A stretch of DNA of 64,000 nucleotides, taken from NCBI GenBank assembly GCA_017541325.1, contig JAFXZI010000014.1, positions 45,741 through 109,740 on the forward strand. The letters run 5' to 3'. This document shows, in pieces, positions 2,929 to 60,677 of this stretch; positions within the stretch are counted from its first letter, which is position 1; every line of letters starts with the position of its first letter. The notes under the pieces were generated by a model, which saw only the letters and a list, made by a program, of their open reading frames with translations, had not been told where the DNA came from and did not search any database. This DNA is from Bacilli bacterium. GTDB lineage: Bacteria > Bacillota_I > Bacilli_A > RF39 > UBA660. Position numbers and translations under genes: made by a program.

Positions 2929-4983
2929 TTAGTGATCAACTACTTCGATATTACCGGCTTGATGTTCAATTGTTCCTGTTTTAAATTTTTGATTTGCAAT
3001 TTGAGCACCTGTAAATGAAGTCCAGTTCCACTCTTTTCCAGTATTATTAATGATTTTAACTAAATAAGGGTCATTTGTTGCTGTTTTTGCAAAAATACCA
3101 TTATTCATACTAGTAACATATTTTGGAATAGATACAGTACCATATGTTCTCCAAGTATATGTACCTGATAATTTAGTTATTTTAGTCCCGTCAGGGGCAG
3201 TTTCTGGAATTACAAGAGTTCCTGTTGTTCCTGGATTAGGTCCAACGAAATCTGATATTTCATTGTATAAAATAGTACCATTTGTAACTTTAAACATAAA
3301 TCCGTTATGAATATATTCACTATTATTTGTAATAACGTTATGATAAAAAGTATTAGTATCAATTGTTAAATTTGGTACATCTGATATAGGAGGCAAGTTT
3401 AATGTTTTAATATTACAACTTAAGAATGCTGCTCCTGAAATTTTTGTTAATGTTACCCCTTCTTTTTTTGCTGGTATAGTTAAAGCATAATTAGCAACTC
3501 TTCCTCCACCATAACTAACAATAGTTGTATAATCCCATTTTCCCTTTCCAGGATTATCTGGATCGGCTATTCTTTTATAGAAAATACCATCTATTCCATC
3601 CATTTTATTTTGAACAAATGCTCCTCCTCCAATTGATGTAACAGTATCAGGAATATCAATAGATGATAATTGATTTCCTCTAAATGCAGTTGAACCAATT
3701 GTTTTTAAATTTGCAGGTAATTTAACACTTGTTAAACTATTACTATAAAAAGCAGAACTATTAATTGTTTCTACTGAATCTGGAATAGTAACAGATCCTT
3801 TTAATCCAGCACTTTGGAAAGCACTACTATCTATAGTTTTTAATTGATATCCGTTTTTCCATTCAGGAATTACTATATTTTCTCTTGTTTCTCCACCATA
3901 ACCTACAATTGTAGTAAAGTCTTTTGATCCATTAGACTTTGTTTTATAAATAAATGCATTAGCATCAGTAAAATTATTGTTTGAGAATGCTGCTCCACCG
4001 ATTGTTGCATTACTATTTATATCGATATCTGATAAACAGTTACCTTGGAACGCATATGATCCAATACTCTTTAATGAAGCCGGAAGAGTTACATTACAAA
4101 TCTTATTACTTGCAAATCCATATGAACCTATTTTTTCTAGTCCTTCAGGAAGAATTAATTGTTGAATTTTTGAATTATAAAAACCAAAATCTTCAATTGT
4201 TTTAACTGACTTAGATAGTTTTACGCTTTTTAAATTATTTCCTTGGAATGCTGCATATCCAATTGTAACAATTCCATCATATGAACGAACACTTGTTATT
4301 CCTTTACCTTTAAACGCCCTATTTCCTATTCGTGTTACTTTTAAATTACCTATTTTAGAAGGTATATCAACATCTAATCCACAACTAGTATTATAGTTAG
4401 TTATTGTTATTGTCTCATCTTCATTTTCTTCCCACTCATAACAATCTTGTCCTTGTTCTAAGGTTATATTTACTGTAGGTTCTGTTTTTTCTTTATTTCC
4501 TTCTTCATCGACAATAACTATATTATCTCTTCCACCTATTGGGAAAGAATTATTAATAGTTTTATCATCAGTTACATAAATTTTACCAATTGATAAATCT
4601 TTTTCTGCAGTTAAATCAATCTTATGTCCTGTTTCATCTACACTTACCCAGTAATATTTAAATTCTTTTTTATTATTAATTACTACTACTACATAAGCCT
4701 CAACCCATTTTCCATAAGGACTATCTTTAACAGCACCATTATCTGTTTCTAGATTCTCTATATTATAATAATATGTAGTATTAGTATCTCTTGCTATTAA
4801 ATCATTTTTAGAAAGCATATTTGCACATATTTGAATGTACTCTCTAGCAGTATTAATATATAGTTTTCTTTTACTCTTGTCTATATAGTTTGATATTCCA
4901 AGAATTGCAATCATTCCCATTATACCTAATAATACAACTACTGCAATTATTTCTATTAAAGTAAATCCTTTTTGATTTTTCAT
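2929..4983 (-). CDS. Type IV pilin-like (class III signal) protein fused to a BspA-type leucine-rich-repeat adhesin domain
   Basis: N-terminus MKNQKG^FTLIEIIAVVVLLGIMGMI is the canonical prepilin/pseudopilin cleavage-methylation motif (G-1, F+1, E+5). AGGTGA RBS favours the second ATG at 4983 over 4992. The C-terminal half has about 20-residue repeats (IGSYAFQGNCLSDIDI, IGSTAFRGNQLSSIDIP) typical of BspA/Treponema-type LRRs. Confidence 0.7.
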   Translation of the reverse strand: MKNQKGFTLIEIIAVVVLLGIMGMIAILGISNYIDKSKRKLYINTAREYIQICANMLSKNDLIARDTNTTYYYNIENLETDNGAVKDSPYGKWVEAYVVVVINNKKEFKYYWVSVDETGHKIDLTAEKDLSIGKIYVTDDKTINNSFPIGGRDNIVIVDEEGNKEKTEPTVNITLEQGQDCYEWEENEDETITITNYNTSCGLDVDIPSKIGNLKVTRIGNRAFKGKGITSVRSYDGIVTIGYAAFQGNNLKSVKLSKSVKTIEDFGFYNSKIQQLILPEGLEKIGSYGFASNKICNVTLPASLKSIGSYAFQGNCLSDIDINSNATIGGAAFSNNNFTDANAFIYKTKSNGSKDFTTIVGYGGETRENIVIPEWKNGYQLKTIDSSAFQSAGLKGSVTIPDSVETINSSAFYSNSLTSVKLPANLKTIGSTAFRGNQLSSIDIPDTVTSIGGGAFVQNKMDGIDGIFYKRIADPDNPGKGKWDYTTIVSYGGGRVANYALTIPAKKEGVTLTKISGAAFLSCNIKTLNLPPISDVPNLTIDTNTFYHNVITNNSEYIHNGFMFKVTNGTILYNEISDFVGPNPGTTGTLVIPETAPDGTKITKLSGTYTWRTYGTVSIPKYVTSMNNGIFAKTATNDPYLVKIINNTGKEWNWTSFTGAQIANQKFKTGTIEHQAGNIEVVDH

Positions 4984-5073
4984 AATATTCACCTACTTTA
5001 ATAATAACATTTTGTATAGTAAAAAAGAGATATTTTTATTGTCTCTTTTATCTATTTTACTTAAAAATGTAAA

Positions 5074-12764: not shown

Positions 12765-13460
12765 TTAACTTAGTTTTAAATATTCTATTATTACCGGTGT
12801 AAGAATTAGTAATAATATTAATGGTATATAAAATAATACCGATATAACAGAAACCTTTACAGGTATCTTGTTAATGATTGCTTTTATTTTTAATACTTGT
12901 CTTTCTCTTATATAATCAATTTGAGTATATATATCTTCAATAATATCATTACCTAAAGTATTAGATTCAGATATATGAAGAATAATACTATTTACTTCAT
13001 CTGATGGAATTCTCTCTCTTAATGAATCAAGTGCTTCGTTAAGACCTTTTCCATATTTCATTTCTTCTAAAGTAATTTTAAATTCATTAGATAAATCATT
13101 ATCTACATTTATAGTTGCAACTTCTATAGAATCAACTATGCTTTTTCCTGATTCTAAGGAAAGTGCCATTACTTCAAAGAATTCCATAGCATTATACTCT
13201 AAATTATCTTTTCTTTTATTTATTGGAATCTCAATTAAATAATAAGTAATTAATTTAAAATAAATAAAAGTAATAATCGGACTAAGTAAATATCCCCAAT
13301 CAAGCATATATAATAACATGAAAAATATAATTAGAGAAGAAAAAGTTCTAAAGTTAAGAAAGAATATACTACTCATATTACTTTTTCCCATTTTTAATTT
13401 CTTTTCAAATTCTTCTATTTTTTTTCGAGGATAAATATAATACCAAAATTTATTTTTCAT
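12765..13460 (-). CDS. tadC: Tad pilus platform protein, TadC-like (T2SS-F domain)
   Basis: 231 aa. Membrane protein directly downstream of the TadB-like gene (overlapping) and the CpaF ATPase. Canonical tadZ-tadA-tadB-tadC order. Confidence 0.65.
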   Translation of the reverse strand: MKNKFWYYIYPRKKIEEFEKKLKMGKSNMSSIFFLNFRTFSSLIIFFMLLYMLDWGYLLSPIITFIYFKLITYYLIEIPINKRKDNLEYNAMEFFEVMALSLESGKSIVDSIEVATINVDNDLSNEFKITLEEMKYGKGLNEALDSLRERIPSDEVNSIILHISESNTLGNDIIEDIYTQIDYIRERQVLKIKAIINKIPVKVSVISVLFYIPLILLLILTPVIIEYLKLS

Positions 13461-14446
13461 AATTTCACCTCGATGTATACTATTTTTCTAATTATTATTA
13501 TATAGAATACATATAACATTATTATTAACACAAATGCTAAAAATCCTATGGTTGTAGTAAATAAAGTTACAAAGTATGCTGGATTAAGTAATAATAAGAA
13601 TAAAACTAATATCGGTGGCATTGAAACTAAAATACGATAAACGAATCTAGCTTGAGAAGAATTACTTTTAAGTTCTTCTCTTAATTTTTTTCGTGCTAAT
13701 GCATTTTTTTCAATAGAATCAAATACAGATACAATGTTTCCACCAGTTTTACTTAATACACTAATTGAACTAGTTAAGTATGTAGCTTCAACACTTTTTA
13801 CTCTTTTACTAAATCTTTTAAAAGCTTCTTCTATATCTAATCCAAATTTAATATCTTCACTTATACGTTTAAACTCTATAGATATAGGTCCTTGCATCTC
13901 TTTAGCAACTAAGTCTATAGCTTGAATAATACTTTTTCCTGATTTAAAAGCATTATTCATTATTACTATTGCTTCTGAGATATCATTATCTAGTCTATTA
14001 TCTTCATATTTTCCAAGTACATATAAATAAATATCATATAAGAAGAATCCTGCTAAGAAAGATATTAGAATATTTACGATAGTTAGAACATTTTCTTTAG
14101 CAAATGAATTACATATAAGTAATAATAAACATAATAATCCTATAAATATTTTTCTACTAATGTAATTCATATTTGTAAGAAGTTTTTTACTACCTGAATA
14201 CTTTATATATTTTTTACTATAATCATCAAATACATGAGTTTTTATTAGTCTCCTAGATAGTTTTTCTTCTATATTTCTATAACTACTTACTAAAACATCA
14301 ACAATAGAAAGAGTATCATTATCATAATCTACAGTATAATTATTAAATCTTTTAGTTAATTTATAACTGTTATATGATTTTATAAATAACCATACCAATA
14401 ATAGAATTAAACATATTAACAATAATACTAATAAATATAATTCCAT
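13457..14446 (-). CDS. tadB: Tad pilus platform protein, TadB-like (T2SS-F domain)
   Basis: 329 aa with N-terminal TM, central soluble helical domain and C-terminal TMs. Position immediately after cpaF. Confidence 0.7.
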   Translation of the reverse strand: MELYLLVLLLICLILLLVWLFIKSYNSYKLTKRFNNYTVDYDNDTLSIVDVLVSSYRNIEEKLSRRLIKTHVFDDYSKKYIKYSGSKKLLTNMNYISRKIFIGLLCLLLLICNSFAKENVLTIVNILISFLAGFFLYDIYLYVLGKYEDNRLDNDISEAIVIMNNAFKSGKSIIQAIDLVAKEMQGPISIEFKRISEDIKFGLDIEEAFKRFSKRVKSVEATYLTSSISVLSKTGGNIVSVFDSIEKNALARKKLREELKSNSSQARFVYRILVSMPPILVLFLLLLNPAYFVTLFTTTIGFLAFVLIIMLYVFYIIIIRKIVYIEVKL

Positions 14447-14459
14447 ATTTTACTCCTTT

Positions 14460-15812
14460 CTATTTTTTCTTAGTTGTAGTCTTTTTAGTAATTTTATTTT
14501 TTGCTTTAGATTCAAACATATCTAAAACAATTCCTTTATTTTTAATTTTTTCATATATTTTTGGTACATTTTCATAAAGAATAAATTCTCCGTTTACTTC
14601 TTTATTTTCAGTTATACCATGCTTTAAGAATGCAAATATATCTTCAATAATAATATTTTCTCCATCAAATCCAGTTATTTCTGAAATATTAGTAACTTTT
14701 CTTTTACCATCACTTAATCTTTCAACCGATATTACTATATCAATAGCACTATCTATATACCCTCTAATAGCTTTAATAGGCAATTCTACTTCGCTCATAA
14801 GAATCATTGTTTCAAGTCTATTTAATGCATCTTTTACTCCGTTAGCATGTAGAGTGGTTAATGATCCATCATGACCTGTATTCATCGCTTGTAGCATATC
14901 AAACGCTTCTTTACCACGAACTTCACCAACTATTATTCTATCAGGACGCATACGAAGAGAGTTTCTTACTAAATCTCTTATTGTTATTTCTCCTTCTTTT
15001 TCATAGTTTTCAGTTTTAGTCTCAAGTGAAATAACATGTTCTTGTTTAAGACGAAGTTCAACTGCATCTTCAATAGTAATTATTCTCTCATCATTAGGAA
15101 TAGATCCTGAAAGAACATTTAAAAGTGTTGTTTTACCAGAACCAGTTCCTCCACATATTAAGATATTTAATCTTGCTTTAATACAAGCATCTAAGAAAGT
15201 AGCCATATATGGAGTTAATGTACCATTTCCTATTAAACTATCCATATCTTCAACATCATCTCTAAATTTACGAATAGTTACAACTGGCCCCTTTACTGAT
15301 AATGGTGGAATAATAGCATTTATTCTAGATCCATCAGGAAGACGAGAATCTACCATTGGGTTACTACTATCAATAGTTCTACCTAGTGGTTGAATGATAC
15401 GACTTACTGTTCTTATTATATGTTCATCATTAATAAATGAAACATCATAATCACGAGATATTATACCATCTACTTCAATATATATTTCATCAGGAGAATT
15501 AATCATTATCTCTGTTACATTTTTATCTTTTAATAATTCTGTAATAGGTCCAAATCCATTTAATTCATTATTAATAAGATTTTTTAAATAGTCTCTTTGT
15601 TCATTTAAAAGATCATATTCAACTGCAATTCTATCTATTACTTCTTCTATATTTTCTTCTTCTATTTCATGAGAATCAATTAATTCTTGAATAATCTTAA
15701 TACGTAATTTATCAAGTTCTTCTTTATTCTCAAAAATATCATAATCAGTATTAGTATAAGTATTGGAACTATTATCTTCTAAATTGAACTCTTCCATCCA
15801 ACTATTATTCAT
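14460..15812 (-). CDS. cpaF: Tad/Flp pilus assembly ATPase CpaF/TadA
   Basis: 450 aa. Walker [20 protein letters not shown]. CpaF-specific [60 protein letters not shown]. Confidence 0.9.
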
Positions 15813-16563
15813 AATCTTCCTCCTCTACTAAACTACGTATATTATTACTAAATGTTTCATATTCTTTTTTAGCTTCACCAGTAAATATTTCATTAAAATT
15901 AATTATTTTTTCATCCATAACTAATTCATTATAATTATTTATAAATAATTTATTACTTATAGAATAATCTAATTTTTTAATTACTGTTTTTATATCATAA
16001 ATATCATAATTATCTTTAATATCTCGATATGATTTATTTAGTAGTACAACAACATTATCTACTTTCATATTTTTAGTTATAGAAATGAAACTCTTATTAA
16101 TTTCTAAATTATAAGCATCATCTCCAACTATATCTATAATCTTCATACTTTTATCAAAAAGAAGCATATTAAGTGGGCTTAAAGTATTATTTGTATCAAT
16201 TACTATATATTCATATGAATACATTAATAAATCTAAAACTTGAGACAATGCTTTTACATCTATTTTAGATGATAATCTCATATCTATAGGAGCAGGAATA
16301 AAAGATAAGTTATCTCTTACATAATAAGTATATGGAGTAGAACTTTCATATTTTTTATTTCTTAAATCATCACACATATTATAAATAGTCTTTTTAGGTT
16401 TAATACCTAGTGCAAAAGCAAGATTTCCTCCATATAAATCTAAATCTATTAAAAGAGTACTTTTATTTTTACTTAAAATATCTGCAATCATCATTGAAAC
16501 AGTAGTTTTACCTACTCCACCTTTCATAGATGTTACAGTTATTATCTTAGCTTTATTCTTCAT
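15805..16563 (-). CDS. cpaE: ParA/MinD-family ATPase, CpaE/TadZ-like (ATPase domain only, no N-terminal receiver-like domain)
   Basis: 252 aa. Deviant Walker A TSMKGGVGKTTVS. 8-nt overlap with cpaF. Confidence 0.75.
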   Translation of the reverse strand: MKNKAKIITVTSMKGGVGKTTVSMMIADILSKNKSTLLIDLDLYGGNLAFALGIKPKKTIYNMCDDLRNKKYESSTPYTYYVRDNLSFIPAPIDMRLSSKIDVKALSQVLDLLMYSYEYIVIDTNNTLSPLNMLLFDKSMKIIDIVGDDAYNLEINKSFISITKNMKVDNVVVLLNKSYRDIKDNYDIYDIKTVIKKLDYSISNKLFINNYNELVMDEKIINFNEIFTGEAKKEYETFSNNIRSLVEEEDYE

Positions 16564-17341
16564 CTAACCAACTCCTATTTTTATTATAATTATTTATTAT
16601 ATTATTTTCTGTTAATAACATATCATATGATTTTACATATTTAATATTCTTAGTATTAATAATTAAATCTCCACTTAAATTATCTATTTCTTTTATAAAG
16701 TCTCCATTTAAATATAGACGTGCTTTGTTAGTACCAACTAAATCTATAATATTTCTTTCATTAACTGGACCAATTAAAATATCATTTAAATACAGACTAT
16801 TATTACTTATAAAGAACCTACTATTACCAATCATAAATTGAGTATCATCTAAATTAGTAAAACCAATTTCTAAAGAATAATTTTCTAAATCAAAATTCTT
16901 TATATTAATTACACCATTAATTATGTTGTAGCCTCTACCATCTAAACTATTTACTTCATTATTATTTATTTCAAAATACATTAAAATATTACTTGTATAT
17001 TTTACTTCTTTTTCTGATGTAACAGTATATTTATCCATACCTATAATTTTTCCAAATATAGGTTTTATATCTTTATGCGTTTTTATATAAATAGATCTGT
17101 TTTCTATTTTTACTTCATCTATAACGATATCTTCATCATTTAAACTATATAATAATTTAATATCTTCATTAGAAACATCAATCTTTTTATTTAAACTAGT
17201 TAAAATATCTTTATTAACGTTATCTAAATAATTTTTATTATAAAACATCAAAGATGAATCTATAATAAAAGCTAAAGCAAGTGTAATAATAGGTAGTAAA
17301 AGTAAGAATAATACCAGTACTTGTCCTTTATTATTCTTCAT
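16553..17341 (-). CDS. TadE/TadG-like pseudopilin (larger paralog)
   Basis: 262 aa. N-terminus MKNNKGQVLVLFLLLLPIITLALAFIIDSSL resembles the TadE N-terminal motif. Overlaps cpaE start by 11 nt. Confidence 0.55.
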   Translation of the reverse strand: MKNNKGQVLVLFLLLLPIITLALAFIIDSSLMFYNKNYLDNVNKDILTSLNKKIDVSNEDIKLLYSLNDEDIVIDEVKIENRSIYIKTHKDIKPIFGKIIGMDKYTVTSEKEVKYTSNILMYFEINNNEVNSLDGRGYNIINGVINIKNFDLENYSLEIGFTNLDDTQFMIGNSRFFISNNSLYLNDILIGPVNERNIIDLVGTNKARLYLNGDFIKEIDNLSGDLIINTKNIKYVKSYDMLLTENNIINNYNKNRSWLDEE

Positions 17342-17684
17342 TATTAATAGTCCTTTCTACTTTAACACTATATGGATCTTTTATTATTCTATTAATTCCT
17401 GGAGTCATTAAATCAACATCTTTAGTAATAATAATTGTTGTAATAGAACCCTTATCAGTAATATCAACATTAATATTTTTGTATCCAATACTAGCTAGAT
17501 ATGACTCTATTTCATCATTATCACTATTCTTTTGATATAGTGAAATAACTTCATTACTAACTCCTTCTAATTTACTATTTTCAAGTATTATTCTTCCTAA
17601 ATCTAAAAATGAAAAGAGAAGTAATATTATTACTGGTAATATAAGAACAAATTCAATAAGTGCTTGACCCTTATTATTCTTCAT
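17331..17684 (-). CDS. tadE: TadE-like pseudopilin
   Basis: 117 aa. N-terminus MKNNKG^QALIEFVLILPVIILLLFSFLDLGRI closely matches the TadE consensus (G-x-A-x-x-EF-ALvLPvllll...g). Confidence 0.65.
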   Translation of the reverse strand: MKNNKGQALIEFVLILPVIILLLFSFLDLGRIILENSKLEGVSNEVISLYQKNSDNDEIESYLASIGYKNINVDITDKGSITTIIITKDVDLMTPGINRIIKDPYSVKVERTINNEE

Positions 17685-17746: not shown

Positions 17747-18898
17747 TTAAATATCATGAATATTTATTGTAGTATCCTCTTCTGTATCTTTTCTAAATAT
17801 ATCTTCTTTTCTTAACCTATAATTACTAATTATTAACTGCTCTATATTTCTATCTAAAGTTATATAATCTTCTCTATGAAGGGTATTTATTACAAGTCCC
17901 CATATATTAGCTTCTTTAATTGGTTTTGTTTTTAAAGAAAGACTATATATTCCTAAAAGATCCATATTAAATAATTCTTCTAAAGTTCTTTTATCAATAT
18001 CTTTTATTTTTCTTAAAACAAAATCATAACTAGAAGATACAAAATGTTCAAATGCTCCTAGTAATTTATCTTTACCACCAATAGTATTTAATAACTGATT
18101 AATAGTTAAAGCAAAGAAATTATAATTTATCTTTCTAAAAGCTTCATTTTTATATAAAGATTTAGGTAATGAATCACTAGCTGGATCAAAGAAATAAAAT
18201 CCATCTGCTTCATATTTAGAATCTTCTATATAAATTACAGAAACATATTCAGTATCATCTCTTTTAATTGGAACAATATAAACAGGAATATTTAATCTAG
18301 ATAATATTTCTTTAAATAGATTATTAAATCCTAAAGAATTAGTTTTTCTAGTTCTAACTATATCTGGTAATCTATCACTACTAGTTCTATCTAAATCAAG
18401 TAATTTAACAAAATCATATACTTCCTTTACCTTTTCTAGAGGTGACATTTTCTTATCAATAGATAATATTACTATATTAATATATTCCTCCATCATTCTA
18501 TAATTTGGAAGAGTTGTTATTTGATAAGTACCATCTTTATAACTATAAGAAAATTTCCAAGAATCAGGATTTTCATAAGGAAAAGATAATAATTCCTTAA
18601 CTTCATCCGGATTATTATCTCTTAAAACTAATTTTTCGACACTACTATCAGTAATCATAGGAGATAATTCTAAAACATGTTTAATTGTTTCTATATCTCT
18701 AACTTGAACCTGATCTCTAAAAGTAACTTGCGCTACTGTATTTATAGAAAATAGCATTTTCTTTACTTCTTCTAAAGTGTCAGCAGTTATAGGGGTGCTG
18801 AAGTCTAGATTGGTAATTCCAATGTATTTTAGTAGTTCTTCATCAATTGTCCCTAAATCGGATTCGAAACCATTTTCCAACTCAAAACACCCTCTCAT
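17747..18898 (-). CDS. Hypothetical soluble protein, first gene after ddl and immediately upstream of the Tad genes; start codon uncertain (ATG at 18898 lacks an SD; a TTG about 18 nt downstream is preceded by GAGGGTG)
   Basis: 383-aa ORF with no TM. 10-nt gap to ddl and 62-nt gap to tadE. Confidence 0.4.
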   Translation of the reverse strand: MRGCFELENGFESDLGTIDEELLKYIGITNLDFSTPITADTLEEVKKMLFSINTVAQVTFRDQVQVRDIETIKHVLELSPMITDSSVEKLVLRDNNPDEVKELLSFPYENPDSWKFSYSYKDGTYQITTLPNYRMMEEYINIVILSIDKKMSPLEKVKEVYDFVKLLDLDRTSSDRLPDIVRTRKTNSLGFNNLFKEILSRLNIPVYIVPIKRDDTEYVSVIYIEDSKYEADGFYFFDPASDSLPKSLYKNEAFRKINYNFFALTINQLLNTIGGKDKLLGAFEHFVSSSYDFVLRKIKDIDKRTLEELFNMDLLGIYSLSLKTKPIKEANIWGLVINTLHREDYITLDRNIEQLIISNYRLRKEDIFRKDTEEDTTINIHDI

Positions 18899-24127: not shown

Positions 24128-25699
24128 TTATAAATTAAGTTCTTTAGTTGTCAACTCTTTAGTTGCTTCAAGTTCAGGATCAGGATCTGGTTCTACTGGC
24201 GGTTCACCATTTCTTCTTCTTTCCCTTCTTGGCTCTACGATTAATTGTTTTTCTTCTTTTTTCTTTTCTACTTTTTCTTCTATTATTTTATCTTCTTTAG
24301 GATTCTTTTCTTCTTTTTTTCTTTTTATCCATAATACAAGTATTACTATTAAAATAGCAAATATTAAGAATAATTCTAATAATAAGAAGAAACTAACTCT
24401 TTTATCTTTTTCAATAACGATTGTATATTTACTAGACTCTCCATCAATTCCTGTAATAGTTATCTCTATTTCATCCCCAACTTTTAAGTCTTTTATTAAT
24501 TCTTTATTATTATTAATATCAGGATTCATAGTAACTGTTACTTCATCTTCCGGACTTACTGTTGTGTAATAAATTTTTAAATCTTCAAATTTCAATCTAT
24601 TATAATTTATCTTATATTGATAATTATTTTTATCAAAACTTATATCATATCCTTTTATAGATAATGATTTTAACATCTTACTAATACTTTTATCTAGATT
24701 GTTAACTATTACTGTATATGTAGCTTTTTCTCCTTTTTCAGAAGTAACTATAATTTTAAATTCATTATCTCCAACAAGTAATTTTTGTGGACCAGTAACT
24801 TCTGCTTTAGCATTAGGATCATTTGTTATCGCTTCTATTTTAACAGTCTCTGCTTTATATTTCTTAATAGTATATTTATATTTATTGGATTTAAATTCTT
24901 CAAGAGCAGTACCATCTATTGTAATTCCTGATAAAGTTGCATCAGTACTTCTTGTATCTTCTCTAGTAATATTAAGAGTATATATTTGTTCAGTACCACT
25001 TTCAGATACAACATTTAATTTAATTGTATTATTTCCATATTCCAAATTAACTGTTCTAGGTCCTAAACCATTTTTAAATGATGCTTTAGAAGATGTAGTT
25101 GTTGCTTCTATCTTAGCATTTGCAATATCACCTGTAACACTAACATCATAAGTTAAATTTTCAGAATGAAATTTTTCTACACTCACACCATTTATTTTAA
25201 TACCAGATAAACTAGCATCACTTGATTTGATGCTGATGGTTTTAGTGATTTTAGTACCCAGTTGTGTCACATCTCCAGCAGCATTTGTTATTTGTGTTGT
25301 ATTAAATGTTAGATTTGCACTATTTGCAGTTGGTTTTGATGTTACTTTGAAAACTAGCCTTCCAACTTCATTAGAGCAATTACCGGTTTTACAATTAAAT
25401 ACTACATCTTTACCAGAAATCCCGGGTTCTGATTGATTTTCCCAATTCCCAGATTGTTTAATAGCTTTAAAAGTAAACACCTTAGAATCATAACTAATTT
25501 GGGTAGTAAATGTAGTACCAGTCGTTGCTTGTATCCCATTAACATAAATTATATATTCAAATTCTTCAGATGGAGATACTGCAGTCGGACCAGTTATATT
25601 AACTTGAGGTTGACTTTGTGCATAAGCAAAAATAGGCATAAAAAATGCTAATATGCTTACTAGAATCCCCTTTACTTTCATCTTTTTTATTCTATTCAT
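24128..25699 (-). CDS. Cell-surface protein with signal peptide, tandem cadherin-like beta-sandwich domains and a C-terminal TM anchor plus charged tail
   Basis: 523 aa. Signal peptide MNRIKKMKVKGILVSILAFFMPIFAYAQ. Three repeats of about 90 aa beginning (D/A)(A)SLSGI(K/T)I(N/D)G. C-terminal hydrophobic segment followed by an acidic/basic tail. Confidence 0.6.
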   Translation of the reverse strand: MNRIKKMKVKGILVSILAFFMPIFAYAQSQPQVNITGPTAVSPSEEFEYIIYVNGIQATTGTTFTTQISYDSKVFTFKAIKQSGNWENQSEPGISGKDVVFNCKTGNCSNEVGRLVFKVTSKPTANSANLTFNTTQITNAAGDVTQLGTKITKTISIKSSDASLSGIKINGVSVEKFHSENLTYDVSVTGDIANAKIEATTTSSKASFKNGLGPRTVNLEYGNNTIKLNVVSESGTEQIYTLNITREDTRSTDATLSGITIDGTALEEFKSNKYKYTIKKYKAETVKIEAITNDPNAKAEVTGPQKLLVGDNEFKIIVTSEKGEKATYTVIVNNLDKSISKMLKSLSIKGYDISFDKNNYQYKINYNRLKFEDLKIYYTTVSPEDEVTVTMNPDINNNKELIKDLKVGDEIEITITGIDGESSKYTIVIEKDKRVSFFLLLELFLIFAILIVILVLWIKRKKEEKNPKEDKIIEEKVEKKKEEKQLIVEPRRERRRNGEPPVEPDPDPELEATKELTTKELNL

Positions 25700-33796: not shown

Positions 33797-36700
33797 TTAA
33801 TAGTAAACAGTTGCTCCGTTACATGCTACATCTCCATAAGAAGCTGTACATGAGCTTGTTGGATAATATGTACCTGTTCCTGACCAACCATTCCATATTT
33901 TACATCCCCAAGCTGCACTATAACATGATTTTGCACATGTATCACATACAAACTCGGTTGTAGATTGATAATGACATGTACAGAATTGTTGTGAATCATC
34001 AGTACCTGTTCCTGTATCAGAACAAGAACATACGTGAGGACTACAGAACGCTCTACATCTTGCTTCAGCTCCTGTACCTCTAAAGGCATTGTCTATTGTT
34101 TTTCCAACACAGTTACAATCTTCTGTTCCACATACACTTGAACTTGGTCCACCCCAATTATGTTGATAACATGTATTCTTTTGATACATATATGCTGATG
34201 ATACAGATACAGTACAACTATTTGTTAGCCCTGCACCGTTTGTACATGTATATGTTTTATCAGATGTTTGATTAGTATTTGAGAAAGAAGCTGTTACAAC
34301 ACCACTTGTACCGTCTGCACATGTTGCTCCTGTTGTTACCCCATTTGAATGATATTGATGGGATTTACTTGGTGTACATGACGGAACAGATGCATCTCTC
34401 TTAAATTTTATTGAACATGTATTAGTGTTTCCAGCATTATCTTTTATATGTCCTGTATATGTTACACTTTTTGTATCAGTAGTATGTGATGCTGTTTTGC
34501 TTCCAGTTACTGAATCTATTCCATATGATGCTGTTCCACTTAAGTCATCTCCAGTATTACCTTTTCCACTTACAAAGCTAACACTTACATTTGATGTATA
34601 CCAATTATCATTTCCAACTGTTCCAGATGTAGTTAACTTACAATATGGTTTTGTTTTATCTAGTTTAAACCAAATCTCACATTTATTTGTTCTTCCTGCT
34701 TTATCCTTTATATATCCATAATATGTTATTCCTGATGTTGTTGTATTAGTAGATTGTGTTTTCTTTGTGCTTTTATTATAACTTGGCGTTGCTGATGTTG
34801 TTATATCCCATGATGCTTTATCACTCATTGAATTATCTTTTTTAACATCTTCATATTTTTTAAATGTTACATCTACATTTCCTTCTTTATACCAATTATT
34901 ATCTCCTTTAGTACCAGTAAGTTGTAATTCACATGTAGGATTTTGTGAATCTTTTTTAACTACACTACTACAATCTTTTAAGTTTCCAGCATTATCTCTT
35001 ACATATCCATACCATGTATGACTTGTTGTATCTTTTGTTTGAGTTCCTGTATCATTTCCATTATATTCTAATCCACTTGAATTTTTTAATCCATAGTTTC
35101 TTGTTCCTGATTTTGTATATTTATTTGCAATTTCAGCATTATCATCTTTTGTTAATTTAACTGGAACATTTTCCCAGAAATAATCATTTTCATGTCTTAC
35201 GACTCTATCACTACCAAATGTTATTGTACATTTTGGCTCTGTTTTATCTATATTTGTTATTTCTCTTGTTTCTGGTAAACTTTCATTTCCTGATGTATCT
35301 TTTACTTTCATTATTACTGTTGCAAGAGTTGGATAAGTATAACTATTATCTTTTTGCCATGGATTATTATCAAATTTGTAGTCTCCTCTTCCTGATACTG
35401 AGTCTGTTGCATTTATATATAATGTTACATCTCTATTTGTATAATATCCTACTGTATCATCTCTTGTTAATAATTCTATTCTTGTTACATTATTTAACTC
35501 TGTTGCACTTGCAAATGATATTTCTAAATTACTAAATGAAGTTGGAGTTGCAAAATAGTTTCTTGCCTTTGATGTTGATGTTGGAATTGTTACAGTTAAT
35601 GTTTTATTTTTTACTGTATCTTTTATTGTTGCAGTTCCACCCTTTCCTGATGCCATATATACATATACTCCATATATATTACCGTACTCACCAGTTATGC
35701 TCGTTAAACTAATTTTTGTTGATGTTTTAGAAGCAAGTAAATCAGCTTTATCTTTTTCTGTACCTACTCCATATACTACTGTTCCATAGTCTATTGATTT
35801 AATAACTGGAATTACTGGATCATATGGAATTTCTCTATAACATGTTCCTACATTTCCAGCATTATCTTTTACATATCCATATACTGTTGTTATACCATCT
35901 TGTACTTCATATTCTGTTTCTTTATTAAAGTCGTAATTACTTCTACTAACTCCCATTCCATATGTTGCAATTCCACTTGTATCTCTTTCATCTACTTTTA
36001 ATTTAACTACTGGTCTTGGACTTGCTTTATACCATCCATTTTCCCCCATAGTTCCTTCAACTTCTAATGTACATTTTGGTGGTGTTTTATCAATATAAAC
36101 ATCTACTGGACACGCATTTGTTTTTCCAGCATTATCGGCAATTGTTATTGTTCCAGTTTCTCCTTCTTCAGTGAACTTCTTTGTAAACGTATCTTGAACA
36201 CATCCTGTACAATTATCACTACATCCAATAGTTATAGTTCTATCTTTATTTGTCCACACTTTAGAATCTCCTTGTGCAACACCACAAAGAGGAGGTTCAT
36301 CATCCATTTCTTCAGTACAAACACGTTGTGGTGGAATTCTTTTACTTAAATCTTCACATTTTCCTGATTGATAATCTCCACAAACTAAACATACTTCATA
36401 TGATAAATTTGTTATGTTTGGTCCTTCATTTTTAACTAAAACGAAACTTTGGAAAGGATCACAATCTTTAGAATCATCTTTAGGATCTCTTAACTTATTT
36501 GAATATCCTGTAGATATTAATTCTGATAAAGTTACTTTTTTATACTTATCTACTCCAGGAATGCAAATAGTATCATTTTTTTCTACACATTCAGTCATTA
36601 GATTTTGTGCAGAAACCTTCATATCAGCTTCATACATTTTATAAGTATTATTTCTTGTATCAATTATGTACCTTGAAATAGCAGGGAATAATAAACCCAT

Positions 36701-36943
36701 TAATAAACCTAGCAATACTACTACTGCTAGCATTTCTATCAAAGTAAAACCAAAACCAATTGTACCATTCTTTTTTTCATGTTTCTTTGGAGTTTGGTCT
36801 TTTCTTTTTATATTTGTTTGTAAAACTTTAATATCTTTTTTAGGTTTTTTAGTAGTTTTTGCTTCATTAGTAACCTTTTTTGTAATCTTTTTATTGTTAA
36901 TACTACTACTTTGTCCCCTTTTTTTAGTTTTATTCTCACTCAT
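33797..36943 (-). CDS. Giant type IV pilin-like protein: 64-aa polybasic leader, class-III G^FTLIEM motif, about 5 HYR/Ig-like repeats, Cys-rich C-terminal domain
   Basis: 1048 aa. GGTGAT RBS before the first ATG. ...KKNGTIGFG^FTLIEMLAVVVLLGLLMGLLFP. Repeated blocks of about 90 aa ending (Y)G(Y/H)(V/I)KD(N/K)AGNxxxC...DKTxPxC(T/E)L, matching the HYR consensus. Last 200 aa contain over 30 Cys. Confidence 0.65.
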   Translation of the reverse strand: MSENKTKKRGQSSSINNKKITKKVTNEAKTTKKPKKDIKVLQTNIKRKDQTPKKHEKKNGTIGFGFTLIEMLAVVVLLGLLMGLLFPAISRYIIDTRNNTYKMYEADMKVSAQNLMTECVEKNDTICIPGVDKYKKVTLSELISTGYSNKLRDPKDDSKDCDPFQSFVLVKNEGPNITNLSYEVCLVCGDYQSGKCEDLSKRIPPQRVCTEEMDDEPPLCGVAQGDSKVWTNKDRTITIGCSDNCTGCVQDTFTKKFTEEGETGTITIADNAGKTNACPVDVYIDKTPPKCTLEVEGTMGENGWYKASPRPVVKLKVDERDTSGIATYGMGVSRSNYDFNKETEYEVQDGITTVYGYVKDNAGNVGTCYREIPYDPVIPVIKSIDYGTVVYGVGTEKDKADLLASKTSTKISLTSITGEYGNIYGVYVYMASGKGGTATIKDTVKNKTLTVTIPTSTSKARNYFATPTSFSNLEISFASATELNNVTRIELLTRDDTVGYYTNRDVTLYINATDSVSGRGDYKFDNNPWQKDNSYTYPTLATVIMKVKDTSGNESLPETREITNIDKTEPKCTITFGSDRVVRHENDYFWENVPVKLTKDDNAEIANKYTKSGTRNYGLKNSSGLEYNGNDTGTQTKDTTSHTWYGYVRDNAGNLKDCSSVVKKDSQNPTCELQLTGTKGDNNWYKEGNVDVTFKKYEDVKKDNSMSDKASWDITTSATPSYNKSTKKTQSTNTTTSGITYYGYIKDKAGRTNKCEIWFKLDKTKPYCKLTTSGTVGNDNWYTSNVSVSFVSGKGNTGDDLSGTASYGIDSVTGSKTASHTTDTKSVTYTGHIKDNAGNTNTCSIKFKRDASVPSCTPSKSHQYHSNGVTTGATCADGTSGVVTASFSNTNQTSDKTYTCTNGAGLTNSCTVSVSSAYMYQKNTCYQHNWGGPSSSVCGTEDCNCVGKTIDNAFRGTGAEARCRAFCSPHVCSCSDTGTGTDDSQQFCTCHYQSTTEFVCDTCAKSCYSAAWGCKIWNGWSGTGTYYPTSSCTASYGDVACNGATVYY

Positions 36944-47912: not shown

Positions 47913-48734
47913 ATGATAAATATGAATAAAAACAAATTAATAATAGTTAGTATTATTTGTATCTTATTATTTTCTTTTAGTTTTTATTATATATCTTTTA
48001 ATAAAGAGAAAAATAATAAAGAAATTAATAAAAAAGACGAACCAATTATAAATAATGAAAAAGATGATAATAAGAAAGATGAAGAAACGCAAGTAATAGA
48101 TAGTACAGAAACAAAAGATGATAAACAAGAAGTAACCGAAACAAATACTAATACAACTACAAACAATACTAATACTACTAAAGAAACAACTACTAATACT
48201 AAAAAGAGTAATACAACTTCTACTAGCAAAAGTAATACAACAAAAAAGAGTAATACTAATACTAGTACAAATACAAAAAAACCAACTAGTCAAAATAATA
48301 CTAATCATTCTAGTAGTACTACTCAACAAAATAATAACACAAGCACTAGCAGTAACAACAATAATACAAGTAGTAGTAATAACAACACTTCTACTACACC
48401 ACCAGAAACACCTTCAACACCTACAATTACATATTCTTGTCCTAGTGGATATACTCTAAATGGTACTAAATGTACAATAACTGTAAATGCTAGTTTAGTA
48501 TGTCCAGATAATACAACGGAATCTATTAATGATAGTTGTATCAATCTAAGTGAAGGGTATGAAAGTCAAAGCGAAGAATGTCCAAGTGGATATATTATGA
48601 TTAAAATGATTGGTATTGGTATACCTGATAAATATATGTGTCATCCTGCACACTCAAAAGTATATAGATGTGAAAGTGGTTATACTTTAAGTAATAATAA
48701 ATGTACTAAAACAATTGATGCAACACAAAATTAA
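47913..48734 (+). CDS. Secreted protein: signal-anchor, Thr/Asn/Ser-rich low-complexity stalk, C-terminal triple CxSGY(T/I)(L/M)...KC(T) repeat
   Basis: 273 aa. N-terminal TM. About 120 aa of T/N/S/K low complexity. Repeats YSCPSGYTLNGTKCTIT / ECPSGYIMIK / YRCESGYTLSNNKCTKT. One of only three plus-strand genes in the window. Confidence 0.5.
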   Translation: MINMNKNKLIIVSIICILLFSFSFYYISFNKEKNNKEINKKDEPIINNEKDDNKKDEETQVIDSTETKDDKQEVTETNTNTTTNNTNTTKETTTNTKKSNTTSTSKSNTTKKSNTNTSTNTKKPTSQNNTNHSSSTTQQNNNTSTSSNNNNTSSSNNNTSTTPPETPSTPTITYSCPSGYTLNGTKCTITVNASLVCPDNTTESINDSCINLSEGYESQSEECPSGYIMIKMIGIGIPDKYMCHPAHSKVYRCESGYTLSNNKCTKTIDATQN

Positions 48735-49464: not shown

Positions 49465-52400
49465 TTAATTTCTACTAACAGTTCTATCAGTTGTAAGAGA
49501 ATCTGTTAAGTGTGTTGATCTATCTTGTATTCTTGTTTCTGTACCTTTCATATATTTTCTACAAGCTTCAACCATATTACGGTATCCCTCTTCTCTCATA
49601 TTATCTGATACAAATTCATCAAATCCTTTTCCATAAAAGTTTCTACCAAAGTCATATACTTTATATTTTTCTTTAAATTCTTCAAAAGATACCATTCTTC
49701 CATCAGGAGTTAAAGCAGCTGATAAGAAACTTCTACAAGCGTCAGTAAAACTTCCTCCATTTTGTAAAATCCAGTTTTCTACACCAACTCCACCTAAACC
49801 TCCTGTACTATCTGGAGAATGTGCTGGTTTATAACATTCATTTTCTTTTAAGAACTTTTTAGCAAATATAATATTATCTAGTACTCTCTGATATTTTAAA
49901 GGATCTTGTCGTTTAATATTTTCTAATCTATCTTTTAAACATTCATCTGTACTATAAAAATCCATTTCATCTTTTTTAACGTAAGATATATCTAAATCAA
50001 CCGGTTCTTCAAGTCCTGGAATAACTACTCCTTTTAACCTTAAATTACCATTTGCAAGTACTTGTCCATCTTCTACAGCTTTTTCATAATTAATTCCTAA
50101 TTTAGCACATATAGTTTTACTTAATTCTTCTGGTTTTTCACGTACATCTATTCTCATAATAAAATCAAAGTCACTTGTTATTTCTGTATTAGTTCCTCTT
50201 CCAGTTGAACCTGTATCGATTAAATCTACTCCTCCTAAAGTTAAATCTTCAGATTGAGATGAACTAAATCTTAAACCTCTTTCACTCATAGCTTCAGCAA
50301 CAACTCTATTAATATGAGCTCTTTTGTTATTAGAGTCTTCTATTAATTTTTGATTATTATAATCTGGAACATCATCTAAATGAGATGAGAAAGTATATTC
50401 TTCACATCCATATCTAGATAATCCAGACATTTTACTTCTTATTAAATCATATTCTTCTGGTGTAAATAGTAGTTTCCCAGTATTTTTATCATATACCGGA
50501 ATATAAAAACCATTTAAAGCGATTGCAAATTTAGTATCTTCAACAAGCATTTCTCTTCTTTTTAATTCATCTTCATTTAGATTATCTGTATCACCTTTTT
50601 TTATAGTAGGATCAATTATGACATAGTCTATATCACAAGAACCAAATCCAGTTCTAATTCCCCATTCAATTCCTGTTGAAAAGACTTCTTTTCCATAACA
50701 TACTTCAGAAGACTTCTTAGTATCTGCATCTCTAGTCACTTTAAATCTTCCATCATTTTTAATAACAAACCAAATTGGTCCCCATCCACTAGAATATGAA
50801 TTATCTACTCTATCTTTTACTTTTCTTTCTTTTCCAATTCTTGTAAGATCTGTATCACATGGAGTTTGATCACTTCCAGGAGTCCCTACCCCTAAATATT
50901 CTTTGGCTAGAGAACCATTTTGTAATATATCATATAAGAATTGTGTATCTCCAATTCCTTTTAAGAAATCTCCTTCTTCAAGTGAAATCCCTTCTCTTGC
51001 ATATCTTCTTCCTCTTATATCTGCTCTTGTTTTTGATTCATCCATCATTGTTTTTAGTTGTTCAAAAGATTTAATACCACCCATAAATCCAAACATTCTA
51101 ACAATTCTATCTGGAAGATCATATCTTGAAGTAGTTCCAAACAAAGAATGAAGTTTATTTAAATCTTCTTTAGTATCACCAGATAATTCGACTGGATGTT
51201 CTCTTCCTGCTTTTGATTGATTATAAACCGCCTCTAAATGTTTTAAAAAAGTAGTAAGTATCTTTTTATTTCTATCATCTAAACTCTCAATATCTACTTC
51301 ATTTGATGTTATTAGTAAATATAGAGCATTTCCTCTTTCAATAGTATTTAAATAATTTCTTAAAGATAGATTATTAGATTCTGCAGCTATTCTAATTAAA
51401 TCACCTAAAATAACCATATTTCTTCTTTCATCATCTATATTAGATAATGTTGGACTCATCATATCTTCTTTAACTGTTTCAAAATCAAATTCAGGATACA
51501 TTATTTTATATATTAAAAATCTTTTTGCCATTTCCGGAAGATTATTATGAATAAATACATTTTCTATTTTTGCAAGTTTATCTTCATAATTATCTGGATT
51601 ATTTAAAATTTGTCCTAGTATTTCACAAAAGAATTTATTTAATTCTTTACAATTGGAATTCTCCATATGTTTTTTTAAACACTCGTAAACTTCAATTAGT
51701 TTTGATGCTTTTTTATCATCTATACTAAGGAGTGAACCATCAGAAAATATTTTATCTATTAATACTCCAGCTGAATCATAATTACCTCTTGATATTTTAA
51801 TTAAAACTTCAAACATTGATCTTGAAATACCTAATTTTTCATAATCATATTCATCTAATAAATTCATATTATATTGTTCGATATATTCAAAAACATGTAA
51901 TAGGTTAATTTTACCAATAAACTCTCTAAAATGATCTTCATTAAACATTAATTCCCCTGATTTACTAAGTCTAAATACTTTATTAAAATCTATTGTTTCA
52001 TTTTCTTCATCATGAAAAACATGTCGTCTAAAATCCATAAATAAATAATATGGATAATAAGATGACTCTAATATTTTTAATTCTACTTCTGTTAAATGTT
52101 TTGCAAGTTCTGGTATTACTTTACCATCTTGAATAAATGGCCTTGATGTAGATTCAAACGGATCAATCAATTCATATAACTTATCATTAACTAATAAATA
52201 ATATCCATCAATAGAAAATGCTTCTTTTATATTATTTCTATTTAAACTCCCTTTTTTTAATAAATTCTTAATTAAACTAAAATATTCATCTACATTAGAT
52301 TTTCTTTTATAGTTACCATCTCTAACAACAGTAATAAATTTAGAAACATCTTCTCCAAATAGTTTTTTTATAAAATCACTTGAAAAAGTATTTTTACGAA

Positions 52401-52926
52401 AATAAAAATTTATATTTCCATCAATAAAATAATCAGCACCTTTACTTAATAATAAATCATAGAATTCTGATTTAATTTTATTATTTTCATCAAATATATC
52501 TGAAATAGTTAATCCTTTAAATTTTAATAAATATGTAAGTACACATCCTAAAAGTGCTCTATCATTTGGTTTAAAAGACTTAGTTAATTCTCTAAACGCT
52601 TCTGCTTTTTTTAAATCTTCTTCACTAAAAGAGTTTTCCCAGTTAACACCAAGATTAGATAAGAATTTTTGAACATCAGGTGATAATAAAATAGCCGGAT
52701 TTCCATTAAATGTTCCATTTGAATTAATGAAATCTAATAAATTTTGTGCTGATAAATGTTTTTTATTTAAAATTTTAGAAAAAGAATCTGTAACTGATGA
52801 ATAATCATAATAATGACTAATTGTTTCTCTAAGTTCATCTAATGGTCCTCTTCTTAATAATCTTTTAAATCTTCTTTTACCATATAAAAACCATGTAAAA
52901 GCATTATATCGCATTAATATCACCAC
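49465..52926 (-). CDS. Large (1153 aa) multidomain protein with C-terminal Pol-beta-superfamily nucleotidyltransferase domain
   Basis: Residues about 905-925 DTGSTGRGTNTEITSDFDFIMRID form the minimal NTase core GS-x9-SDxD(h). Downstream acidic residues (VDLDISY). Later Gly-rich DSTGGLGGVGVENWILQNGG. About 850 N-terminal residues without a recognisable motif. No TM. Confidence 0.5.
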   Translation of the reverse strand: MVILMRYNAFTWFLYGKRRFKRLLRRGPLDELRETISHYYDYSSVTDSFSKILNKKHLSAQNLLDFINSNGTFNGNPAILLSPDVQKFLSNLGVNWENSFSEEDLKKAEAFRELTKSFKPNDRALLGCVLTYLLKFKGLTISDIFDENNKIKSEFYDLLLSKGADYFIDGNINFYFRKNTFSSDFIKKLFGEDVSKFITVVRDGNYKRKSNVDEYFSLIKNLLKKGSLNRNNIKEAFSIDGYYLLVNDKLYELIDPFESTSRPFIQDGKVIPELAKHLTEVELKILESSYYPYYLFMDFRRHVFHDEENETIDFNKVFRLSKSGELMFNEDHFREFIGKINLLHVFEYIEQYNMNLLDEYDYEKLGISRSMFEVLIKISRGNYDSAGVLIDKIFSDGSLLSIDDKKASKLIEVYECLKKHMENSNCKELNKFFCEILGQILNNPDNYEDKLAKIENVFIHNNLPEMAKRFLIYKIMYPEFDFETVKEDMMSPTLSNIDDERRNMVILGDLIRIAAESNNLSLRNYLNTIERGNALYLLITSNEVDIESLDDRNKKILTTFLKHLEAVYNQSKAGREHPVELSGDTKEDLNKLHSLFGTTSRYDLPDRIVRMFGFMGGIKSFEQLKTMMDESKTRADIRGRRYAREGISLEEGDFLKGIGDTQFLYDILQNGSLAKEYLGVGTPGSDQTPCDTDLTRIGKERKVKDRVDNSYSSGWGPIWFVIKNDGRFKVTRDADTKKSSEVCYGKEVFSTGIEWGIRTGFGSCDIDYVIIDPTIKKGDTDNLNEDELKRREMLVEDTKFAIALNGFYIPVYDKNTGKLLFTPEEYDLIRSKMSGLSRYGCEEYTFSSHLDDVPDYNNQKLIEDSNNKRAHINRVVAEAMSERGLRFSSSQSEDLTLGGVDLIDTGSTGRGTNTEITSDFDFIMRIDVREKPEELSKTICAKLGINYEKAVEDGQVLANGNLRLKGVVIPGLEEPVDLDISYVKKDEMDFYSTDECLKDRLENIKRQDPLKYQRVLDNIIFAKKFLKENECYKPAHSPDSTGGLGGVGVENWILQNGGSFTDACRSFLSAALTPDGRMVSFEEFKEKYKVYDFGRNFYGKGFDEFVSDNMREEGYRNMVEACRKYMKGTETRIQDRSTHLTDSLTTDRTVSRN

Positions 52927-53044: not shown

Positions 53045-53121
53045 TGGTGACCAGTACGGGATTCGGACCCGTGTATCCTGCCGTGAAAGGGCAGTGTGTT
53101 AAACCGCTTCACCAACTGGCC
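53045..53121 (-). tRNA. tRNA-Glu (anticodon UUC)
   Basis: Minus-strand sequence GGCCAGTTGGTGAAGCGG...CTGCCCTTTCACGGCAG...CGGGTCCGAATCCCGTACTGGTCACCA. Cloverleaf with anticodon loop CUUUCAC. Encoded CCA. Confidence 0.85.
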
Positions 53122-53126
53122 ATAAA

Positions 53127-53203
53127 TGGCGCCTCAACTGGGACTTGAACCTAGGACCCCTTGATTAACAGTCAAGTGCTCTAACCAACTGAGCTATTGA
53201 GGC
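53127..53203 (-). tRNA. tRNA-Asn (anticodon GUU)
   Basis: GCCTCAATAGCTCAGTTGGTTAGAGC...CTTGACTGTTAATCAAG...GGTTCAAGTCCCAGTTGAGGCGCCA. Anticodon loop CUGUUAA. Encoded CCA. Confidence 0.85.
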
Positions 53204-53206
53204 AAC

Positions 53207-53283
<77 letters not shown>

Positions 53284-57610: not shown

Positions 57611-57640
57611 ATAAAAAAAGAAAAAGACTTTACAAGTCTT
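57611..57640 (-). terminator. Intrinsic terminator after the Bat-like locus (overlaps the TPR gene stop)
   Basis: AAGACTT-tac-AAGTCTT hairpin followed on the minus strand by UUUCUUUUUUUAU. Confidence 0.55.
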
Positions 57641-60231: not shown

Positions 60232-60677
60232 TCTTCTATTACCTTCCTTGTTTTATTAATGGAAGAAATAATGTCTCCCTTATTATTCTTTGAAAATTCT
60301 GGTTCATAATACTCTTTAATTAGATCATATAAAATACCAGTATCTTTTTCTTTTATTTCCGATAAACTACTTTTAAGTAAATCTATATCTGTAGCATCTA
60401 ATACAAAACTTCTTATTAAAACACTCAATCTATTATAAGCAGTTCTACTTTTTATTTTATTAGAATTTATTTCATTATAAAGACTATCTATTTGATATAG
60501 ATATTTCTTTTTTATTATTAAAATATCTTTAGTTATAATATTATTCTTTGGGGTTGGTTTATGTTTAAAAAGTACATATAAAAAATATGCTACTAAAGAT
60601 ACAAGTAATATTATAAAAAGAATAAAACCAACGATATTATAACTAAATTGTCCTTCTAAACTAACTTTTGACTGCAT
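60222..60677 (-). CDS. Small membrane protein (DUF4381-like position in MoxR-vWA operons)
   Basis: 151 aa, single TM (IVGFILFIILLVSLVAYFLYVLF). Positioned between DUF58 and the vWA genes, as in Bat operons. Confidence 0.45.
   Translation of the reverse strand: MQSKVSLEGQFSYNIVGFILFIILLVSLVAYFLYVLFKHKPTPKNNIITKDILIIKKKYLYQIDSLYNEINSNKIKSRTAYNRLSVLIRSFVLDATDIDLLKSSLSEIKEKDTGILYDLIKEYYEPEFSKNNKGDIISSINKTRKVIEEWK

Follow-up and report, generated by a model that had tools for sequence, protein, structure and literature searches.

A pilin-like protein with a BspA-type leucine-rich repeat solenoid in uncultured gut Bacilli: domain anatomy, family and genomic context

The LRR pilin gene and the domains of its product

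The window analysed here is a stretch of 64,000 nucleotides from contig JAFXZI010000014.1 of a Bacilli bacterium (assembly GCA_017541325.1). Positions 2929..4983 of its minus strand are occupied by an intact gene for a 684-aa protein, hereafter the LRR pilin, which combines a pilin N-terminus with a leucine-rich repeat (LRR) region of the BspA type. This combination, first described in a sequence-only reading of the window, is confirmed by the list of open reading frames (ORFs) together with Pfam matches to N_methyl and LRR_5. The ORF as listed extends over 2929..4992 (minus strand, stop codon at 2929-2931), the actual start being the ATG at 4983; direct reading of the sequence reveals the Shine-Dalgarno sequence AGGTGA (4989..4994, minus strand) 5 nt upstream of this ATG, and the alternative GTG start at 4992 falls within it. 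The gene is flanked by yitT and glyS, its product begins with MKNQKG^FTLIEIIAVVVLLGIMG (the caret marking the predicted cleavage site), and a protein identical to it (P0001) is present in the public protein collection. Scanning for promoters and terminators was uninformative in this AT-rich DNA, with 18 promoter-like sites observed against 18 expected.

The first six residues, MKNQKG (4966..4983, minus strand), form a short basic leader peptide with Gly at position -1, followed by Phe at +1 and Glu at +5, i.e. a class III motif (MKNQKG^FTLIEIIAVVVLLGIMGMIAILG) that an A24 prepilin peptidase would be expected to cleave after Gly6. Phe7 and Glu11, i.e. positions +1 and +5, do not vary among 68 family members, in which Gly6 is conserved to at least 90 %. 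Both Pfam N_methyl (PF07963; 29.5 bits over residues 1-26, cut-off 21.2, E 5e-7) and TIGR02532 (25.7 bits, cut-off 16.3) are matched above their curated cut-offs, so that the description of this region as a pseudopilin N-terminus in the sequence-only reading holds. Further NCBIfam matches below threshold are to the N-termini of GspG, GspH, PpdD and PilA, with the ComGC model absent among them, and the best matches of the N-terminus among solved structures (phmmer against PDB chains) are PilA-N, MshA, PilE1 and PilA. Neither Flp_Fap (PF04964) nor TadE (PF07811) is matched in Pfam at E<=0.01, and position +6 is Ile, as opposed to the Tyr or Phe of the Flp/TadE motif G^xxxxE[YF]. Judged by motif and profile, the leader and helix are generic for pilins of the type IVa pilus (T4a) and type II secretion system (T2SS) class and are not of the Flp/TadE class.

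The more specific label 'ComGC-type', which had also been given to the leader, finds no specific support. ComGC shares the short basic leader, the motif G^FTL(I/V)E and a monoderm Bacilli host, but is a protein of about 100 aa that is encoded after comGA-comGB and serves as the major pilin of the Com pilus. We rejected membership of ComGC for a protein of 684 aa that matches no ComGC model and is encoded between yitT and glyS, with neither a comG operon nor any ComGA/ComGB-like gene in the window. Flp, TadE, TadF and TadG, as well as the 621-aa 'pilin 938' of the gut clade TANB77 (PMC11680825), likewise have a class III-like leader and Glu at +5, and Tad systems include large minor subunits. 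Membership of Flp, TadE or TadF was rejected as well, the LRR pilin differing from Tad pilins in the missing Flp_Fap and TadE matches, in the Ile at +6 and in being encoded outside the tad cluster.

The AlphaFold2 (AF2) model of the protein, which is based on the 68 homologues, reached a pLDDT of 93.6 and a pTM of 0.82. The pilin module opens with the alpha1 helix (residues 7-58; 4810..4965, minus strand), modelled as helical over residues 9-58, hydrophobic in its N-terminal half and amphipathic in its second half. It continues into a globular head (residues 59-150; 4534..4809, minus strand) with four predicted strands (residues 69-74, 93-102, 108-116 and 120-126) and the conserved motifs DTTYY, SPYG, AYVVV and YYW.S.D. 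The head is followed by a connector beta-domain (residues 151-210; 4354..4533, minus strand) with predicted strands at residues 154-158, 164-167, 182-186 and 191-197 and a predicted helix at 175-181; two of its residues, Cys181 and Cys201, are invariant in the family alignment and may form a disulfide bond.

The remainder of the protein (residues 211-684; 2932..4353, minus strand) is assigned by Pfam, repeat spacing and Foldseek to a BspA-type LRR (LRR_5) solenoid with a C-terminal cap. The LRR_5 profile (PF13306) scores 167.7 bits against a cut-off of 27.7 (E 1.3e-49), and the scores of N_methyl, TIGR02532 and LRR_5 are all far above chance. Thirteen units of the form xIGxxAF, spaced 21-23 residues apart within blocks, lie at residues 219-335, 384-458, 515-547 and 626, with three beta-hairpin insertions between the blocks. 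The repeats IGSYAFQGNCLSDIDI and IGSTAFRGNQLSSIDIP, on which the BspA-type assignment was originally based, are present as quoted, and together with the profile score they uphold this assignment. Solved structures matched by the solenoid in Foldseek include 4gt6 (E 2.8e-11), 4h09 (E 3.7e-8), PcpA (4cp6, E 7e-8) and TpLRR (6mlx, E 1e-6); with helix 9-58 and a solenoid that matches solved BspA-type proteins, structure prediction recovers the proposed combination of an alpha1 helix and an LRR solenoid.

Repeats of 21-23 residues of the LRR_5 type and a comparable solenoid (Foldseek E 1e-11 to 1e-6) are shared with BspA-type adhesins, i.e. BspA of Tannerella forsythia, PcpA (4cp6), TpLRR (6mlx) and proteins of gut Firmicutes and Bacteroides (4gt6, 4h09, 4fs7). 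Unlike the LRR pilin, these adhesins have Sec signals combined with type IX secretion system (T9SS), choline-binding, lipoprotein or other anchors, and no prepilin N-terminus. LRR_5 repeats are also shared with HupY/LrrG of Streptococcus agalactiae (NF047961; E 9e-31 over residues 224-340). The protein was rejected as a HupY/LrrG equivalog, with 106.7 bits against a cut-off of 1250 and a match confined to the repeat region.

Family, cargo and chromosomal position

Most of the best 120 homologue clusters consist of proteins of 630-700 aa with both N_methyl and LRR_5. They are 30-57 % identical to the LRR pilin and, where named, belong to 'Bacilli bacterium' metagenome-assembled genomes. Conservation is alike in all domains and, if anything, higher in the LRR region than in the pilin head, which favours a conserved ligand over a hypervariable surface. 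A search among 1.84 billion representative proteins with residues 1-210 (E<=1e-10) located the pilin module in 619 representatives of 126-1505 aa, invariably at the N-terminus; those that were sampled carry LRR_5 regions of differing lengths, DUF6273, unknown domains or no cargo. Genes for G^FTLIE pilins of 130-1321 aa, frequently in tandem, are numerous in low-GC genomes from the gut that carry the label Bacilli, Tenericutes or Erysipelotrichaceae, and viral contigs held no relatives of the LRR pilin. As far as can be read from these sequences, the family is built on a conserved pilin scaffold with interchangeable cargo, i.e. a modular type IV pilin design.

The prototypes of such modular type IV pilins are PilB and PilC of Streptococcus sanguinis, with a von Willebrand factor A (vWA) module and a lectin module, respectively (Raynaud et al. 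2021, PMC8179133). Like these, the LRR pilin of a monoderm Firmicute combines a class III signal peptide, a small pilin module and a bulky domain that is not pilus-specific. Unlike them, its cargo is a BspA-type LRR region, it has an extra connector with two invariant Cys residues, and its orphan gene lies between yitT and glyS, outside any pil locus. On its predicted domain composition, the protein qualifies as a modular type IV pilin with LRR_5-family cargo. Dataset S1 of Raynaud et al. 2021 gives the combination IPR012902-IPR026906 in 18 proteins and a version with two LRR regions in 6, and IPR026906, which is the BspA-type LRR region, is counted in that study among the domains without clear function (PMC8179133). 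The joint occurrence of N_methyl and BspA-type LRR matches is, by domain annotation, common in uncultured gut Bacilli and already catalogued. The LRR pilin is a further member of this catalogued architecture; the family-level picture, i.e. the scaffold, the tandem amplification and the unlinked genes, is new here.

The position between yitT and glyS recurs within the family. This slot (yitT - X - glyS) holds an LRR-pilin gene in the window as well as in L001, L095/L096, L003-L005 and L006 (L numbers are our labels for loci), in L006 as a tandem pair of the family gene. Its counterpart between yitT and the GlyRS gene of L015, a fairly close relative (PNPase 85 % and Lon 77 % identical), holds a 168-aa gene which corresponds to the pilin module alone. 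Amplification reaches five LRR-pilin paralogues (679-691 aa) in L013:4537-15298, arranged head to tail, each with its own class III leader.

Two further observations concern these loci. L013 comes from an assembled genome of the Hadza gut, and tandem pairs occur also in L006 and L011. At L003:12047-15806 in one relative, and also in L004 and L005, a vanY gene and an element bearing integrase/SHOCT have been inserted between the LRR pilin gene and glyS; the yitT-glyS slot seems to be insertion-prone.

Filament machinery and modes of display

The window contains a Tad (type IVc, T4c) cluster at 12765..17684 (minus strand), comprising tadC-tadB-tadA/cpaF-tadZ-like and two TadE-like genes, as recognised by Pfam matches to T2SSF (twice), T2SSE, ParA/AAA_31 and TadE (37.5 bits for the TadE-like protein on the TadE profile). 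It is genomic context for the LRR pilin gene, from which tadC is 7.8 kb distant; six housekeeping genes intervene. The cluster is syntenic across the lineage, TadA being 68-100 % identical over hundreds of clusters. Queries with PilB, PilC, PilD and PilM, together with Pfam searches of the uncharacterised ORFs, found no PilB/ComGA, PilC/ComGB, PilM or A24 peptidase in the 64-kb window; Tad is the sole type IV filament machinery there, as the sequence-only reading had stated. Extending the window by 10 kb to the left, by means of an overlapping contig with identical genes, brought to light a canonical Flp gene of the same organism at L095:18481-18672, about 8.5 kb beyond the left end of the window. 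Its product carries the motif MRNNKKG^QALVEY and matches Flp_Fap with 33.1 bits (cut-off 32.2). Tad genes of this lineage are distributed over several loci among housekeeping genes, and no prepilin peptidase was seen near these loci.

Several side observations bear on the Tad loci. The Flp gene adjoins a divergent DUF192 gene and lies about 26 kb from the tadZABC cluster, and L001 is arranged alike. Immediately upstream of the TadE-like genes, the window encodes a 383-aa protein without Pfam match (17747-18898, minus strand), whose position between ddl and the tad genes is kept in L092 and L093; it may be an unrecognised component of the Tad cluster. At L092:5969-8407, a locus of one relative, tadE is separated from the conserved gene of about 380 aa by four tandem genes of 165-182 aa. 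Their products begin with sequences similar to signal peptides of the TasA/SipW type (MKDSKNLVIGLLCAVICVMAVAYAAF...), and the Tad cluster of the window lacks these genes; 10 kb downstream of them there is a gene for a signal peptidase S26.

To what extent the LRR pilin is typical of pilin genes in its lineage can be read from their surroundings. The loci were sampled by a contig scan with the generic pattern GFTLIELLAV, which returned pilins of many Bacillota. Every one of the cultured Bacillales, Paenibacillus and Clostridium loci examined has machinery beside its pilin genes; elsewhere, phmmer queries with TadA, PilB, PilC, PilD and PilM gave matches in one Myxococcota locus only. All-against-all clustering of the 1041 ORFs of 67 low-GC loci (1.03 Mb) recovered only housekeeping genes (nfo, efp, dnaG, rpoD, PBP) as recurrent neighbours. 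The six contexts of family members that were inspected contain orphans, tandem duplicates or a neighbouring N_methyl gene, and never an adjacent ATPase, platform or peptidase gene. Scanning metagenome contigs with the pilin-module alignment, again as a generic pattern, gave L099-L103 as the best matches to the pilin scaffold, and no machinery was found in these; L104 is a low-GC type IV pilus cluster of the Clostridia type, with no shared genes tying it to this lineage. Unlinked pilin genes being the rule in the lineage, the absence of machinery from a 64-kb window says little.

One recurrent arrangement among these loci is a pair of small G^FTLIE pilin genes (about 170 and 190-200 aa), which many low-GC assembled genomes with the label Bacilli share, i.e. 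near position 10000 of L024, L027, L017, L025, L031, L036, L044, L045, L058, L059, L062 and L065. The neighbourhood is conserved, with dnaG-rpoD-trmK on one side of the pair and nfo, PBP and efp on the other, and the two proteins are candidate major pilins of a filament.

Considering the domain anatomy and the family together, we propose that the LRR pilin is an adhesin whose LRR region is carried by its pilin module at the tip of a type IV filament, which would be built by a PilB/ComGA-type machine encoded elsewhere in the genome; we give this reading as a whole a probability of about 0.68. With its class III signal peptide the precursor would enter the membrane, and MKNQKG would be removed by an A24 prepilin peptidase whose gene would lie outside the window; this would expose Phe at +1 and leave Glu at +5 within the hydrophobic alpha1, as suggested by the motif and by its invariance in the family. 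The 50-residue alpha1 and the predicted beta-sheet head should then allow the protein to join a type IV filament. Because a cargo of about 470 residues appears too bulky for the filament shaft, the protein would most likely be a low-abundance minor pilin that presents its solenoid at the filament tip, in analogy to what has been proposed for PilB of Streptococcus sanguinis. Going by the roles of other BspA-type LRR proteins, the ligand of the solenoid might be a conserved protein or glycoprotein of the host mucosa or of other microbes. As to the motor, which is the least secure part of the proposal, a PilB/ComGA and PilC/ComGB-type system elsewhere in the genome is favoured by the N-terminus, which belongs to the T4a/T2SS class as opposed to the Flp/TadE class.

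Several points weigh against this proposal. Tip location, ligand binding and incorporation into a filament are all properties that we infer. Neither a prepilin peptidase nor PilB/ComGA/PilC-type machinery is present in the window or its 10-kb left extension, and throughout the 67 low-GC loci no ATPase, platform, peptidase or PilM gene lies within 10 kb of a G^FTLIE pilin gene; with no PilB/PilC-type machine beside some 70 pilin loci of related assembled genomes, the machine is postulated, not observed. We found no published experimental study of a family member and no paper on a pilin-BspA fusion beyond the 2021 catalogue, and the literature on RF39, RFN20 and related orders makes no mention of pili or competence.

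Under another explanation no filament is needed: the class III signal would serve for export only, and alpha1 would stay in the membrane as an anchor or stub displaying the LRR region, as in archaeal binding proteins with class III signals. The lack of any other visible anchoring signal in the protein would fit such an arrangement, and so would the lineage's many pilin-like genes (130-1321 aa), which are scattered, often in tandem and without linked machinery, and resemble a general repertoire of surface proteins. Yet Phe at +1 and Glu at +5, which serve contacts between filament subunits, are invariant, and conservation of the full pilin head is on a par with that of the LRR region, which would be unexpected for a mere anchor. 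Moreover, peptidoglycan genes (Ddl, MurF) are present in the window, so that the cell wall would partly cover a protein anchored in the membrane. We therefore consider display from a membrane stub unlikely.

A further alternative would make Tad the only type IV engine of the lineage, one that assembles Flp and also takes the scattered modular pilins of the T4a class, including the LRR pilin and a 1048-aa giant encoded in the same window (see below), as tip or anchor subunits of the TadG type on Flp filaments. That the window has no filament machinery but Tad, and that the cluster belongs to the highly conserved core of the lineage and keeps its synteny, speak for this idea, as does the finding that, in the loci of this lineage, G^FTLIE pilin genes are never linked to a PilB/PilC-type machine. 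The Tad parts are dispersed, the LRR pilin gene itself lying between Flp and tadA, which are about 26 kb apart, and a 621-aa pilin-like protein is encoded within the Tad cluster of TANB77 (PMC11680825). The leaders are also nearly identical (MKNQKG in the LRR pilin, MKNNKG in a TadE-like protein, MRNNKKG in Flp), so that one peptidase could serve all of them; however, leaders of this kind, short, basic and with KG at the end, are generic among pilins. The N-terminus of the LRR pilin is textbook T4a/T2SS class, with neither Flp_Fap nor TadE matched, and the Tad machine has its own major subunit in Flp, which weakens the idea further. The Tad clusters of four relatives (TadA 68-92 % identical; including L092-L094) contain no N_methyl pilin, six housekeeping genes separate the LRR pilin gene from tad, and L003 and L006 have no tad cluster within 10 kb. 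Considering also that no precedent was found in the reviews consulted, we regard assembly by Tad as improbable.

Finally, an artefact, a decaying gene or a mobile one, i.e. a chance pilin-like N-terminus on a secreted LRR protein or a piece of phage cargo, might be suspected from the abundance of LRR_5 proteins with other N-termini among the distant matches and from the integrase-bearing element beside the gene in L003-L005, but appears effectively refuted by the conservation of the N-terminal 210 residues in the family, by the existence of the pilin module also without LRR, by the intact ORF with its good Shine-Dalgarno sequence, by the conserved chromosomal slot and by the lack of relatives in viral contigs.

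If the filament-tip proposal is correct, uncultured small-genome gut Bacilli, which are abundant yet unstudied, bear LRR adhesins of the BspA type at the ends of type IV filaments, and the swapping of cargo on one conserved pilin scaffold would give them a simple and evolvable route of attachment to hosts or microbes. To our knowledge, the modular-pilin principle has so far been demonstrated experimentally only in Streptococcus sanguinis, and the family supplies many natural cases of it. Should these genomes turn out to lack a PilB/ComGA-type system, the Tad machine would have to handle T4a-class pilins, contrary to the assumption that each class of pilin is matched by one class of machine.

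The giant pilin-like protein and other features of the window

A second giant pilin-like protein, also claimed in the sequence-only reading, was found by motif scan at 33797..36943 (minus strand), i.e. a G^FTLIEM protein of 1048 aa with a weak N_methyl match. The label 'HYR' given to it has to be withdrawn, there being no HYR match in Pfam even at E<=10; at this threshold only the weak N_methyl match (E 0.012) and DUF1573 appear. Related giant pilins are encoded in L038, L034 and L024. The cleavage motif is preceded by a Lys-rich extension of 64 residues, in frame from the ATG at 36943. Closely upstream of G^FTLIEM, there is also an out-of-frame ATG followed by an A7 run, and an A8 run in its place would yield the leader MKKKNGTIGFG^FTLIEM. 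Going by the nucleotide sequence, the protein could have a very long leader, or a slippage-prone tract could switch between two starts.

Other genes of the window include further predicted surface proteins. One of 523 aa (24128-25699, minus strand) combines three cadherin-like domains of the beta-sandwich type with a transmembrane anchor at the C-terminus, and another of 273 aa (47913-48734, plus strand), rich in Thr and Asn and with Cys-rich repeats, is among the very few genes on the plus strand. The strand bias is strong, nearly all genes lying on the minus strand, and the GC skew is negative throughout. Two long proteins match no significant Pfam family, i.e. one of 1153 aa (49465-52926, minus strand) and one of 846 aa (55016-57556, minus strand), the latter with a signal peptide, a possible beta-propeller and several transmembrane segments. 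Three adjacent tRNA genes (Glu-TTC, Asn-GTT and Ile-GAT) lie at 53045-53283 on the minus strand. Towards the end of the window, the genes at 57639-62522 (minus strand) encode a MoxR-type AAA ATPase, a DUF58-like protein, two membrane proteins with vWA domains and a TPR-like protein, which have the appearance of a BatA/BatB-like operon.

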